A stretch of 64,000 bases of DNA from a bacterium (lineage in GTDB: Bacteria; UBA8248; JACPRG01; G963555815), in the NCBI GenBank assembly GCA_965218795.1, contig OZ244653.1:576001-640000 (forward strand), given 5' to 3'. Below are positions 2,859 to 38,667 of this stretch, one piece after another. Numbering within the stretch: position 1 is the stretch's first letter; the number at the start of each line of letters is the position of its first letter. The notes under the pieces were generated by a model. The model was not told the origin of the DNA, ran no database searches, and was given only the letters and a program-made list of their open reading frames with translations. The translations under genes and the position numbers were made by a program.

Positions 2859-3176
2859 ATGACGGAATATCGTGTGGTCTTGATCACTTGCGGGGGAGAG
2901 GAGGAGGCCGACCGGATCGCGACTGCGCTGGTCGAAGAACACCTCGCGGCATGCGCAAATATCGTGCCGAAAGTTACATCCGTCTACCGGTGGAAAGGGG
3001 AAATTTGCAGGGATTCGGAAGTTCTCCTGATCGTGAAGGCGTGCGCGAGCACCCTCCGCAAACTGGAGGAACGTGTGAAAGAGATTCACAGCTACGAAGT
3101 CGCTGAGGTCATCGCGCTGCCGATTCTTGCCGGGTCGAAAGAGTACCTGGATTGGATGAAGGACGCATGCAGGTAG
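2859..3176 (+). CDS. cutA: Divalent-cation tolerance protein CutA
   Basis: LAACANI, SVYRWKG, HSYEVAEVI motifs; GGAGG RBS. Confidence 0.93.
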   Translation: MTEYRVVLITCGGEEEADRIATALVEEHLAACANIVPKVTSVYRWKGEICRDSEVLLIVKACASTLRKLEERVKEIHSYEVAEVIALPILAGSKEYLDWMKDACR

Positions 3177-3260
3177 CGGCCGAAATACAGAGACGGTCGA
3201 ACCCGAACACCGGATTCTTGGCTAGCCGCCGTTTATTCCTCTTCGGGCGCGCCGAAAAAA

Positions 3261-3508
3261 TCAGACGAGTTTTGCGACCTCAATATTCTGTTTTGAGCGA
3301 AACGTCTCCGGTGTTCTTGCGATCAGGGCTCCCACATCGTCGATGACACGACCGACGAGATAGGGCATCCCTCAAGCGGAGTACGAGGTTGTGTACTCCC
3401 CTCTCAAGACGACGATATCCAGGTCGTGCCTGCGGCGGCGCGGGCCTGGAAAGCCGCGCTCATGCCCGCAGCATCGTCTCCGATGACGATCCAACGAGCC
3501 TGTGCCAT
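3261..3508 (-). pseudogene. N-terminal relic of a CoA-disulfide reductase/NADH oxidase family flavoprotein with UGA (putative Sec) at the redox Cys
   Basis: Manual translation MAQARWIVIGDDAAGMSAAFQAR/(frameshift)RRRHDLDIVVLRGEYTTSYSA-TGA-GMPYLVGRVIDDVGALIARTPETFRSKQNIEV matches the family pattern IGGxAAGMSAA..SYxxCGLPY..LIARTPE; truncated after about 80 codons. Confidence 0.8.
3326..3371 (-). promoter_or_regulatory. SECIS-like stem-loop directly 3' of the UGA at 3372-3374
   Basis: Stem UCGUCGGU/AUCGACGA, loop CGUGUC starting 21 nt after the UGA, plus lower pairing CCUAU/GUGGG. Confidence 0.55.
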
Positions 3509-35026: not shown

Positions 35027-35324
35027 GAATACCGAGACAGCCGAAAATCATGATTCAGCGGGTATGAATGCCTCGCTGGTTGATATTCGGCTTGAGTTCA
35101 GGTTATGTATCGAATATCTGGCCTCTTTGCTTCGCTCACCATCCTGGGAGAGATCTTGTTGGGGAAGGCAGAGGAATTCCGACTGCCCCCAGGATGTCGA
35201 TCAAGATGGGTGCATTGACTCCCGTGCGGTTTGAATGCGCGGGTGGATTTCCCATGATGAACACATATCGAGAGGTTGGTTGATACGGCCGGCCGCTACG
35301 CTGGAAGACAAGGAGGTCGCCGCA

Positions 35325-36626
35325 ATGGCCACGGAAGTCACCATGCCCAAATTGGGCCTTACGATGGAGCAGGGCACGGTTCTCACCTGGAAGAAGAAGG
35401 CTGGGGATCTCGTCGGGGAAGGAGAGGTCCTCCTCGTGATCCAGACGGACAAGGTGGAGTTCGACGTTGAGTCTCCGGCTGCCGGTACTCTCCTGAGGCT
35501 CCTGGCGAACGAAGGCGATGTGGTGCCGACGGGCGATGTGATCGCGTACGTCGGGGAGGCGGATGAGAAGCTGGAAAATGCGCCTGCGCCGAGAGTGGGA
35601 GCTGCCGCTGCCGGCCGTGTTGCGGCATCGCCGGTCGCGCGGAATCTGGCGACAGAGTTGGGTGTCGACCTCTCGGCGGTCAAAGGGAGCGGGCCGGGGG
35701 GGCGAATCGTCAAGGAGGACGTACTGAAAGCCGCCGAGGCTCCGTCCGCCGCGCCCGTATCCGCCGACGGTCGGGTCTTCATCTCCCCGCTGGCCAAGCG
35801 GCTCGCCCGCGAGCGAGGAATCGACTACTCGCGAATCAGGGGAAGCGGGCCGAACGGCCGGATCATCAAGAACGATATCCTGCAAGCTGAACAGAAACCG
35901 GAAGCCGCGCCCACGATTGCCACATCACCGGGCGGGATATTGGAGAGCATCCCGGTCCGGGGGATGCGTCAGGTCATTGCCCAGAGAATGGTGCAGAGTT
36001 GGACGTCCATTCCGCATGTCACCGAAGTCATTGACGTGGATGCCACGAAAATCGTGGAGATGCGGGAGGCCCATCAATCCGTTTGGGAAGAGCATTATGG
36101 CGTCAAGATTTCTTACAACGATATTTTTGTGCACCAGATTGCGCGCGCCATCCGTAGATTCCCCAGGGTCAATTCCCGGTTAAACGGCAATGTCATCGAG
36201 ATCCTCGAAGAAGTCAATATCGGTGTTGCGGTTGAAGTGGATGAGGGGCTGATGGTTCCTGTGATCCGGAACGCCGACCGGAAAAACGTGGGACAGATCG
36301 CGGGTGAAATCCGGGATCTCGCCGAAAGGGCGCGGGAGGGACGGATCAATCCCGACGAACTCGCCGGCGGCACGTTTACCATCTCAAATCTCGGAGCGTA
36401 CGGAATTCAGACCTTTACGCCCATCATTGACCTTCCGAACAGTTGCATTCTGGGAATCGGAAAGATTACGAAGACCCCTGTCGTCGTCGATAACGTGGTT
36501 GCGATTCGGGATGTCGTTTATTTGAGCCTGTCCTTCGATCATCGAATTGTTGACGGCGCGCCCGCCGCGCAGTTCCTGGCGTTATTGAAAGAGACGTTGG
36601 AAGATCCGGTTGTCGTACCGTTGTAG
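35325..36626 (+). CDS. Dihydrolipoamide acyltransferase (E2) of a 2-oxoacid/acetoin dehydrogenase complex
   Basis: AGGAGG RBS; lipoyl domain (TDKV), two peripheral subunit-binding domains (GSGPGGRI, GSGPNGRI), catalytic DHRIVDG. Confidence 0.95.
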   Translation: MATEVTMPKLGLTMEQGTVLTWKKKAGDLVGEGEVLLVIQTDKVEFDVESPAAGTLLRLLANEGDVVPTGDVIAYVGEADEKLENAPAPRVGAAAAGRVAASPVARNLATELGVDLSAVKGSGPGGRIVKEDVLKAAEAPSAAPVSADGRVFISPLAKRLARERGIDYSRIRGSGPNGRIIKNDILQAEQKPEAAPTIATSPGGILESIPVRGMRQVIAQRMVQSWTSIPHVTEVIDVDATKIVEMREAHQSVWEEHYGVKISYNDIFVHQIARAIRRFPRVNSRLNGNVIEILEEVNIGVAVEVDEGLMVPVIRNADRKNVGQIAGEIRDLAERAREGRINPDELAGGTFTISNLGAYGIQTFTPIIDLPNSCILGIGKITKTPVVVDNVVAIRDVVYLSLSFDHRIVDGAPAAQFLALLKETLEDPVVVPL

Positions 36627-36852
36627 AGCCTCCTTTTTTTCAGTCCTTGCTACTGAAAGAGTCACTCGATGGCGCAAGGTCTTGTTTTGACGTTGCCTTA
36701 TTATCAAAGATGCCCATTGGATAAGGCACGCTCGAGGTCTCCGGAAGTGTGATGCCAAGGGGCAATCGAACCCGAGTGACGTGCACAGCCATTGAGCTTG
36801 TTTTCTTTCGGCCGTGCTAAACTTGCTTCCTCTCTGCATAGGAGGATCGGCC

Positions 36853-37887
36853 ATGCTCGGGGTGGTCAAGACGACGAGGGGGGAGGGAAACGTTGAAGTG
36901 CGGGAAGTCCCGGAGCCCTCACCCGGTACCGGAGAGGTCAAGATAGCGGTTCGTAACGCGGGCATCTGCGGGACGGATCTCCATATCTACCATGATCATT
37001 TCATGTCGAATCCCCCTGTGGTCATGGGACACGAATTCTGCGGCGAAATTGTTGATGTCGGGCAGGGAGTGACGGGATACGGGCCGGGAGACCGGGTCAC
37101 CTGTGAGACGGCAGCGAGAACCTGTGGGACCTGCCGGTATTGCCGCCGCGGGGATTACAATCTTTGCGACGAGCGATTGGGATTCGGGTACGGCGTGAAC
37201 GGGGCTTTCACGAGCTTTGTCATCGCCCGGCAGCAGCTCCTTCACCGTCTGCCGGATAACGTGGATTTTTTGGCGGGCGCGCTCACCGAACCGCTGGCGT
37301 GCGCCGTCCACGGGGTGATCCACATGACGGGCGTCCAGGCCGGCGATGTGGTGGTGGTGACCGGACCCGGCCCCATCGGGTTGATGGTGGCTCAGGTGGC
37401 CCGCGCGGAAGGGGGCCACGTCGTGATGCTTGGAACGGGGCGTGACCAGGCGCGGCTGAAGATAGCGGAAGGGCTGGGATTCGCGCGTGTCATGAATATC
37501 GATGAGGAGGATGCTGGAGAGTACATCAAGGAATTGACGGACGGCTTTGGAGCGGACGTGGTTTTCGAAGGCGCGGGCGCTCCGGTCGCGGCCAGGCTCC
37601 TTCTTGAGATGGTTCGCAAATCGGGGAAATTCACACAAGTCGGTTTAATGGGGAAGCCCTTCGAGATTGATTGGGAGCGGATAGCTTACAAGGAACTCAA
37701 GGTCACCGGGATGTTCTCCCAAAACTGGCGGGATTGGGAGCGGGCGCTGGCGCTTATCAGCCAGGGGAAAGTGGATGTGGCGGCTCTTGTCTCCAGTCGG
37801 GTTCCCATCACCGAGTGGGAAGCCTCCTTTCAAAAGCTCGAGGCCGCCGAGGAGGTCAAGGTTCTCATGAAACCGGTGGAGGACTGA
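36853..37887 (+). CDS. Zinc-dependent medium-chain alcohol/polyol dehydrogenase
   Basis: GICGTD, GHE, CGTCRYCRRGDYNLC, GPGPIG; GGAGG RBS. Confidence 0.93.
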   Translation: MLGVVKTTRGEGNVEVREVPEPSPGTGEVKIAVRNAGICGTDLHIYHDHFMSNPPVVMGHEFCGEIVDVGQGVTGYGPGDRVTCETAARTCGTCRYCRRGDYNLCDERLGFGYGVNGAFTSFVIARQQLLHRLPDNVDFLAGALTEPLACAVHGVIHMTGVQAGDVVVVTGPGPIGLMVAQVARAEGGHVVMLGTGRDQARLKIAEGLGFARVMNIDEEDAGEYIKELTDGFGADVVFEGAGAPVAARLLLEMVRKSGKFTQVGLMGKPFEIDWERIAYKELKVTGMFSQNWRDWERALALISQGKVDVAALVSSRVPITEWEASFQKLEAAEEVKVLMKPVED

Positions 37888-38005
37888 CTTTCAGACGCTG
37901 TTCAATTCACGCCCGGATTCCGCCCTGCCTTCGATACACGAATCCATCCAGAGCCCAATGACGATGGGGCTCCGGCCATTCATCGGTTAAGGCCGAGATA
38001 CCCGC

Positions 38006-38503
38006 TCACTCATATCGGGGCATGGGTTGCTCCGGCGGGACCACGTGAATCTGCTCGATCAGTTCGGGCGGATGAACGATCGTGTTGTGCAGCGGGCAGT
38101 GGGCCAAGTCCTCGAGAAGTGTCTTTTTCTGGTCTTCGGTCAAATCCCCTTTGATGTAAACGTCAGACACAATCTTGGCGATCATGTTTTTACGGCGTTC
38201 GGGATCCCCATGGTAGTCCTTGTGAAACTTGGGGGTGAGACTCCGCTTGAAGCTCAGGTGAATTTCCACATCATCAATCTGGATCCCTTTGGCCTTCGCT
38301 ACTCCCAGCAGCGTGAGGAGGCTTCACCCGCCGTAGCCGGCCGCAAAAAACTCGAACGGGGTAGCCCCGAGATCATCCCCGCCGCGGACCTCCGGTTCGT
38401 CCAGTACGTAGGAATGTTTCCCGGTGGTCGTGAACATTTGCATCTGCATGCCCCTGCCCGTCGTTCGGACAACGACTTGAGGCTGGCCTCGTTTTTCAGG
38501 CAT
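38006..38503 (-). CDS. OsmC/Ohr-family protein with in-frame UGA (putative selenocysteine, codon 60)
   Basis: Manual translation: ...YVLDEPEVRGGDDLGATPFEFFAAGYGG-TGA-SLLTLLGVAKAKGIQIDDVEIHL...HCPLHNTI. The UGA (38324-38326) occupies the first catalytic Cys site, and both halves are in the same frame with no other lesion. Confidence 0.85.
38292..38323 (-). promoter_or_regulatory. SECIS-like stem-loop directly 3' of the OsmC UGA
   Basis: UGA-A-GCCU-CCUCA-CGCUGCU-GGG-AGUAGCG-A-AGGC: 7-bp upper stem, G-rich apical loop 17 nt from the UGA, 4-bp lower stem. Confidence 0.65.
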
Positions 38504-38667
38504 GTGAGTGACCTTTCTCTCGTTTGGGTTGTCCGGATAGAAGAAAAAGGAAATCGATGCTCATCGGGAGTTGGCCGCCATGCGGAGGCCGTTCAGTCGA
38601 TACGGAGCGGGAGTCAGCAAGTCCTTCGGAGCCGACCGGTAAGCCTCCGAGGCCTCCTTGTTTTTCC

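Follow-up and report, generated by a model that had tools for sequence, protein, structure and literature searches.

An OsmC-family gene with an in-frame UGA, probably read as selenocysteine, in a bacterium of the UBA8248 lineage

The locus and its reading frame

The DNA analysed here is a window of 64,000 nucleotides from a bacterium of the GTDB lineage UBA8248; JACPRG01; G963555815 (positions 576,001 to 640,000 of contig OZ244653.1, assembly GCA_965218795.1); unless stated otherwise, coordinates refer to this window as a whole. On its reverse strand, at 38006-38503, lies a gene of the OsmC family that carries a single in-frame TGA, which in all probability encodes selenocysteine (Sec, U). 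The features of the gene are as follows:

38006..38503, reverse strand: full coding sequence of the predicted selenoprotein, 165 codons in a single frame followed by the terminal stop TGA (38008-38006)
38501..38516, reverse strand: start codon ATG (38503-38501), as read from the sequence, with AAAGG upstream
38324..38326, reverse strand: putative Sec codon UGA (codon 60), the sole internal TGA, in the column where OsmC/Ohr proteins have their first conserved (peroxidatic) Cys
38297..38313, reverse strand: SECIS-like hairpin, a 7-bp stem CGCUGCU (38313-38307) / AGUAGCG (38303-38297) with the apical loop GGG (38306-38304)
38292..38322, reverse strand: candidate lower helix GCCU (38322-38319) / AGGC (38295-38292), weakly supported
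38096..38098, reverse strand: codon of Cys136 in the motif HCPLHNT, the second (resolving-type) Cys of OsmC/Ohr proteins

An earlier note, made from the sequence alone, had described one continuous frame from the ATG at 38503 with the UGA at 38324-38326 as its only interruption, and had pointed out that the list of open reading frames (ORFs) reports only the 87-aa C-terminal half. Sequence and translation agree with this frame, and a mechanical ORF list yields two fragments only, one of 59 aa (38324..38503) and one of 87 aa (38006..38269). The purine-rich AAAGG stands seven nucleotides 5' of the ATG and is likely, from its sequence and position, to be the ribosome-binding site; the start is matched by the aligned N-termini of all extracted orthologs, which read MPEK, MPER, MSEK or MSRK. 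When the read-through product was compared with the Pfam OsmC model (PF02566), it scored 52.6 bits against a cut-off of 27.5, and the match extends over residues 42-147, thus spanning the TGA. The region is best explained, and very probably so, as an intact gene whose product is an OsmC-family protein of 165 residues with Sec at residue 60; the identification of the product as a selenoprotein is made with a high degree of confidence.

Conservation of the TGA codon among orthologs

The relatives were examined for the TGA at three levels. (i) A six-frame search of 41 related genomes detected the protein in 22 of them at more than 200 bits, with 59-99% identity (its own genome counted); a single TGA occurs in each of the 22 matches. 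(ii) Among 51 genomes of the phylum, 27 gave a match at E<=1e-30, distributed over 5 of 15 genera, and a single in-frame TGA is present in all 27. (iii) A set of 21 orthologs was extracted, consisting of 20 loci from the 41-genome search and locus L040 (L036-L039 were dropped as duplicates of L017-L020). In this set, at 59-80% identity, the TGA column is identical in all 21, within the context AGYGG-U or AGHAG-U. Neither TGC nor TGT was found at the Sec codon in any of the 27 phylum matches or the 21 extracted orthologs. The TGA is thus kept, together with the hairpin described below, down to 59% identity.

Both halves of the frame appear to be under constraint. Relative to the window copy, the nonsynonymous rate (dN) is 0.09-0.24 on the 5' side of the TGA and 0.12-0.46 on the 3' side, with synonymous rates (dS) above 0.95 or saturated. 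The resulting dN/dS is 0.06-0.13 for the 5' part, where it could be computed for 3 of 12 pairs, and 0.08-0.38 for the 3' part (11 of 12 pairs). Judged from these substitution rates, purifying selection acts on both sides of the TGA.

A sequencing error at the codon is contradicted by contigs from three other, independent studies (runs X4, X6 and X9; depth 13-23), which span positions 37900-38600 in one piece, carry the identical TGA and show just three differences from the window, at 38059, 38080 and 38123. Run X6 also yielded a short contig of another organism (151 nt, depth 2.9), which matches the window only at 38291-38341, i.e., the UGA and the hairpin. Its divergence on both flanks fits the view that no part of the gene is more strongly conserved than this segment.

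The ortholog at L040 (positions 3001-3498, forward strand) is 67% identical, contains both the TGA and the hairpin, and lies in a metagenome-assembled genome (MAG) labelled Acidobacteriota, a different phylum from that of the remaining holders of the gene. Its placement could reflect lateral transfer or an error of binning or labelling.

A SECIS-like hairpin downstream of the UGA

Bacterial selenocysteine insertion sequences (SECIS) lie inside the coding sequence, and the geometry of the E. coli fdhF element, together with the rule of 16-37 nt, served as the basis for comparing spacer and loop distances. In the present gene the UGA is followed by a 10-nt spacer and then by the stem, and the loop begins 17 nt after the UGA; the GGG loop is found at the distance given in the earlier note. 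Like the element of E. coli fdhF and the bSECISearch model, the hairpin is located within the reading frame directly 3' of the UGA, with a comparable spacer (about 10-11 nt) and loop distance (about 17 nt), and presents a G in a small apical loop. Unlike them, it has a loop of three nucleotides (GGG) and a stem that lacks a bulged U, and it matches no Rfam model. The selD gene of the same genome, itself interrupted by a UGA, has a 3-nt loop of the sequence UGA starting 17 nt after its Sec codon, the same distance as in the OsmC-like gene.

In a gap-free alignment of the 21 orthologs, all 147 cells of the upper 7-bp helix are paired. Four of its pairs are invariant, and one varies on a single side (UA in 17 sequences, UG in 4). 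The remaining two show changes on both sides: pair 27-35 occurs as GC (14), AU (5) or GU (2), and pair 28-34 as CG (20) or UA (1). When the 3' partners were shifted by 1-3 columns, pairing over the 11 pairs of both helices dropped from 92.2% to 24.7-56.7%. The covariation score of 0.141 was matched by none of 500 shuffles, a figure that is inflated by the relatedness of the sequences. The RNAalifold consensus, obtained independently, contains the same upper helix.

Further evidence comes from the codons in which the stem is written (T64-L65-L66-G67-x68-A69). Of the five hairpin codons that specify an invariant residue, four have a frozen third base (ACG, YTG, GGA and GCG, without exception in the 21 sequences), and the fifth (CTG/CTA) is a compensated position. 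Elsewhere in the gene the third base is frozen in one of 50 such codons (Fisher 7e-5, a value overstated by kinship). Taken on comparative sequence grounds, the identification of the 7-bp, GGG-loop hairpin as a bacterial SECIS-like element is strongly supported.

Selenocysteine machinery and genetic code

The genome consists of one contig of 5.17 Mb (G000:C1), and a search for the four selenocysteine genes that the earlier note had named found all of them: selA (566 bits, cut-off 268), selB (387 bits, cut-off 242), selD (319 bits, cut-off 125) and a tRNA-SeC with the anticodon tca, which is the only tRNA in the genome with this anticodon. The selD gene is itself a selenoprotein gene, with its own in-frame TGA in the context KAGG-U-GSK:

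G000:C1:5147448-5148413, reverse strand: selD (locus L001)

About 1.3 kb from selD, on the other strand, there is a second, divergent SelD-like or AIR-synthase-like ORF (G000:C1:5145405-5146154, forward strand, L002), which at 106 bits remains below the cut-off. Outside the window, at G000:C1:256424-256515, ARAGORN also reported a 'tRNA-???' of 92 nt whose anticodon call is abnormal in having two bases (gg).

TGA is the commonest stop, ending 1738 of the 2827 long ORFs of the genome, and release factor 2 (RF2) was detected at 517 bits, which rules out a reassigned code. The presence of selB in 48 of the 51 phylum genomes renders its co-occurrence with the OsmC-like gene uninformative; the three genomes that gave no selB match also lack the gene.

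Sec/Cys pairing, fold and active site

Distant homologs were collected as the best 150 of 1266 matches from a library of 1.84 billion representatives. In these, the column of U60 is occupied by Cys in all 147 stretches that cover it, which bears out the U/C pairing foreseen at this position, and the column of C136 by Cys in all 148. U60 is likewise aligned with a Cys of the Protein Data Bank (PDB) chains 9wo1, 2opl and 6mjn and with a Cys in loci L041 and L042, and Cys136 of HCPLHNT aligns with KCPVHKT of 9wo1. The exhaustive search of the same library gave zero relatives at E<=1e-30, and hence no ortholog in Cys form; among its top-ranking matches are fragments ending with residue 59 (P0011 and P0018).

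An AlphaFold model was built from a 61-row alignment (A4), with a predicted local distance difference test score (pLDDT) of 90.5 and a predicted template modelling score (pTM) of 0.81. Its best match among PDB folds is 2opl (E 8e-8, template modelling score 0.72), followed by 2pn2, 6mjn, 1lql and 1vla, all of them OsmC-like or Ohr structures; 53 PDB folds match at E<=0.001, with OsmC and Ohr entries leading. According to the model the protein has the OsmC fold. U60 is placed in a long central helix (residues 49-72), and C136 directly before the last helix (137-143). The alignment is invariant at D35, G42, P49, U/C60 and C136. E51 is retained in 13 of 13 orthologs, and 39 of 46 Cys homologs have an acidic residue (E or D) at this position.

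The thiol peroxidase mechanism is established for Ohr and OsmC proteins (PMC5384416, PMC5962072), and by analogy the following scheme may be drawn for the present gene. SelB carrying Sec-tRNA(Sec) would bind the hairpin and deliver Sec to the UGA in place of RF2. The selenolate of U60 would then attack a hydroperoxide and become a selenenic acid, which Cys136 of the CPLH motif would resolve into an intramolecular selenenylsulfide. The enzyme would be regenerated by a thiol reductant, which by analogy could be thioredoxin or a lipoylated protein. SelB binding, Sec insertion, substrate and reductant are all predictions for this gene; hydroperoxide reductase activity, argued from the family, is the function that we favour, with moderate confidence.

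Relationship to known OsmC families

The literature has known Sec-containing OsmC-like proteins since 2005, when three sequences with a UxxT motif were listed under COG1765 (PMC1088965); the earlier note also mentions such proteins from selenoproteome surveys. Reviews of 2022 (PMC9312934) and 2026 (PMC13188914) still present the OsmC-like selenoproteins as one family with UxxT. A literature search found no paper describing an OsmC selenoprotein with UxxxT; supplements (e.g., PMC13326102 Table S2) were outside its reach.

The known family is represented by the NCBIfam model NF041052 (OsmC_like_Se). The studied protein scores 53.6 bits with this model (44.4 in the genome-wide run), its orthologs 43.6-61.3 bits and a paralog clade, described below, 46.8-64.7 bits, all under the cut-off of 95. 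Its redox motif is USLLT, and that of relatives UGLYT, i.e., UxxxT rather than UxxT. Because of the score below 95, the UxxxT motif and the retention of a canonical CP[LI]HNT, the gene is placed outside NF041052. The same genome contains three members of this family, all outside the window and each with one in-frame TGA (in L047-L049):

G000:C1:1380473-1380892, forward strand: OsmC_like_Se (NF041052) gene
G000:C1:3682860-3683228, forward strand: OsmC_like_Se (NF041052) gene
G000:C1:3048035-3048394, reverse strand: OsmC_like_Se (NF041052) gene

These score 120.9-143.5 bits, have the context GIGxU-LLT/S with the motifs ULLT or ULLS and GCFAEN, and show a GAAGC-type hairpin after the TGA, with a GUA-containing loop a few nucleotides further away than in the studied gene. 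The organism would thus possess four Sec-containing OsmC-type genes. Like the UxxT proteins of the Sargasso Sea and Global Ocean Sampling surveys (COG1765/YhfA-type), the studied protein combines the OsmC fold, Sec at the first conserved Cys and a SECIS hairpin inside the coding sequence just after the UGA. The second Cys distinguishes the two groups, lying in GCFAEN in the former and in CP[LI]HNT in the latter. In a quick unrooted tree, 13 sampled orthologs form one branch (SH-aLRT, the Shimodaira-Hasegawa-like approximate likelihood ratio test, 99). This branch nests in a 60-row group, mostly of Cys type, which excludes the NF041052 genes (support 87), and the branch of the latter is very long.

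The closest proteins, both by sequence (9wo1, 'Osmotically inducible protein C', E 7e-16; 2opl, GSU2788, E 1e-5) and by fold (2opl), are OsmC-like proteins of Cys type, which occur as stand-alone proteins of about 145 aa or as C-terminal domains of fusion proteins of about 400 aa. They share the motifs DEP...GG...P.E...C...T and CPVH, and differ in having Cys in place of Sec, in an identity of at most 40%, and in lacking the insert of about 10 residues (PKFHKDYHGDPERRK) and the C-terminal tail of the studied clade. The Ohr/OsmC hydroperoxide reductases (e.g., Xylella Ohr, with Cys61, Arg19 and Glu51) have in common with it the two-Cys architecture, the fold, a first Cys in the long central helix and an acidic residue nine positions before the first Cys or Sec. 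The Ohr subfamily itself is remote, at 21.6 bits with TIGR03561 (cut-off 88.85) and E 0.003 or worse for the Ohr chains in the PDB.

A second clade of Sec-containing OsmC-like proteins, about 35-40% identical to the studied one, is present in relatives; a search of the window's own genome with the studied protein as query did not detect it. The second clade reads GLGLU-TVVTL ... CCPVHNT, remains below the NF041052 cut-off, and has a hairpin (7-bp stem, 3-nt loop) spaced from the UGA just as in the studied gene:

L043, 468-935, reverse strand: second Sec OsmC-like clade
L044, 462-929, forward strand: second Sec OsmC-like clade
L046, 402-881, forward strand: second Sec OsmC-like clade

The kind of selenoprotein is known, and a case can be made for treating the studied clade as a subfamily of its own within it. 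A bolder proposal, to which we give somewhat less than an even chance, is that the UxxxT...CPxH proteins constitute a second, undescribed, Sec-only branch of OsmC, nearly confined to one small Sec-rich phylum, with no Cys-form ortholog among the 1.84 billion representatives and with an origin separate from that of the UxxT family.

Evidence against the assignment and alternative explanations

Several observations count against the assignment of the gene as a Sec-dependent hydroperoxide reductase. Folded as a single sequence, the 61 nt of the hairpin region give -14.5 kcal/mol, as compared with a mean of -16.5 for shuffled sequences (z +0.76; stability equal or greater in 152 of 200 shuffles), and an Rfam scan of 37900-38600 at E<=10 returned just two matches at chance level (a snoRNA and Xist, E ~1). 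The hairpin is therefore unproven from a single sequence. The covariation rests on two pairs among related sequences, since four of the seven stem pairs never vary. The lower helix GCCU/AGGC is paired in 78.6% of the cells of the 21 orthologs; at three of its four pairs 5-7 of 21 rows are unpaired, no change is compensated, and the helix is absent from the RNAalifold consensus. For these reasons it was excluded from the element, and of the two-part hairpin originally described the upper part is supported and the lower part is not. At the RNA level, one metatranscriptome contig (run X18, depth 2.3) covers only positions 37906-38168, the 3' third of the gene, and could represent DNA carry-over. 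In the active site, no residue could be assigned as the catalytic Arg of OsmC/Ohr proteins: R40 never varies among the 13 aligned orthologs and is not conserved in the 46 Cys homologs. Finally, an OsmC-like protein without thiol peroxidase activity has been described in print (PMC4069020).

The last two points also favour the most serious of the alternatives, namely that the gene encodes a genuine selenoprotein of OsmC fold with another redox role, such as a selenenylsulfide oxidoreductase, a sulfur or selenium carrier or a sensor, rather than a hydroperoxide reductase. The best structural match, 2opl, is an uncharacterised OsmC-like protein, the Ohr- and OsmC-specific NCBIfam models are far below their cut-offs (as seen above for TIGR03561), and the neighbouring genes, conserved only in the closest family, offer no functional hint. 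On the other side, both of the Cys positions that define the mechanism are invariant over the 61 aligned sequences, and the acidic residue at E51 is kept in all of the orthologs and in most of the Cys homologs. Moreover, replacement of Cys by Sec is typical of peroxide-reducing enzymes. We consider such a different role possible, though rather unlikely.

The other alternatives deny the presence of Sec, and each of them is very improbable. The TGA might be a nonsense mutation of TGC or TGT in a decaying OsmC gene, the hairpin being a coincidence of GC-rich coding sequence; the unremarkable stability of the single-sequence fold and the two fragments given by gene callers would fit such a pseudogene. 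It is hardly compatible with a TGA shared by 27 of 27 orthologs in five genera down to 59% identity, with purifying selection on both halves, with compensated changes and frozen synonymous sites in the hairpin, or with the absence of a Cys-form ortholog at E<=1e-30 from the library of representatives.

An equally remote alternative is that the UGA is read without Sec, either through a reassigned code (TGA as Trp or Gly) or through near-cognate read-through inserting Trp or Cys. One public call, P0002, does translate a relative with W at the Sec codon. This call is attributed to a wrong choice of code by the caller, because W also appears at its terminal TGA and the translation continues into junk on a contig of 737 bases. 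In the genome itself, the use of TGA as a stop in 1738 of 2827 long ORFs, the strong RF2 match and a tRNA-SeC that is the sole tRNA with the anticodon tca speak against such a reading.

Nor is it at all likely that there are two small genes, for a 59-aa N-terminal and an 87-105-aa C-terminal protein that perhaps assemble as a split OsmC: mechanical ORFs for them do exist and both pieces occur many times in public collections, but there is no conserved start just 3' of the TGA (the listed GTG is 19 codons downstream, within helix 49-72), the break falls in mid-helix, exactly at the column of the catalytic Cys, and the Sec machinery together with the SECIS-like hairpin accounts for it more simply.

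Neighbouring genes

On the downstream side of the gene, two convergent genes were noted:

36814-37887, forward strand: Zn-dependent alcohol dehydrogenase, downstream of the OsmC-like gene, convergent
35235-36626, forward strand: lipoyl-bearing 2-oxoacid dehydrogenase E2, two genes away, convergent

Lipoylated proteins are known to reduce Ohr and OsmC. The E2 gene, attractive as a possible source of the reductant, was matched in just one relative (L019 and L038, two loci on one contig). The Zn-dependent alcohol dehydrogenase, a class IV aminotransferase and TPR neighbours are common only to four genomes of the same family and are not shared with the second family; consequently, the neighbourhood permits no functional inference.

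Public annotation and significance of the gene

The earlier note had expected standard pipelines to mis-call the gene, and the public collections indeed hold it in pieces or as a read-through with TGA translated as W. Four relatives came up when 5.8 billion proteins were searched by word index: three are C-terminal stubs of about 100 aa, and the fourth is P0002 (196 aa). The clusters of relatives consist of N-terminal pieces of 58-59 aa and C-terminal pieces of 83-101 aa, named 'hypothetical protein' or 'uncharacterized OsmC-like protein', and the records of the relatives are labelled Nitrospinae or Nitrospinota. For MAGs labelled Nitrospinota, 48-54 selenoprotein genes have been reported (BSepDB, 2026; PMC13326102), and this database may already hold the studied gene. 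Since NF041052 does not reach the gene and its 26 orthologs, a profile for the UxxxT clade would repair a systematic error of annotation.

The finding leaves the understanding of Sec decoding and of OsmC enzymes unchanged. A natural Sec enzyme with close Cys homologs would allow a comparison of selenol and thiol peroxidase chemistry. If the proposed assignments are true, the four Sec-dependent OsmC-type enzymes of this organism would mean that it commits unusually much selenium to a single antioxidant fold.

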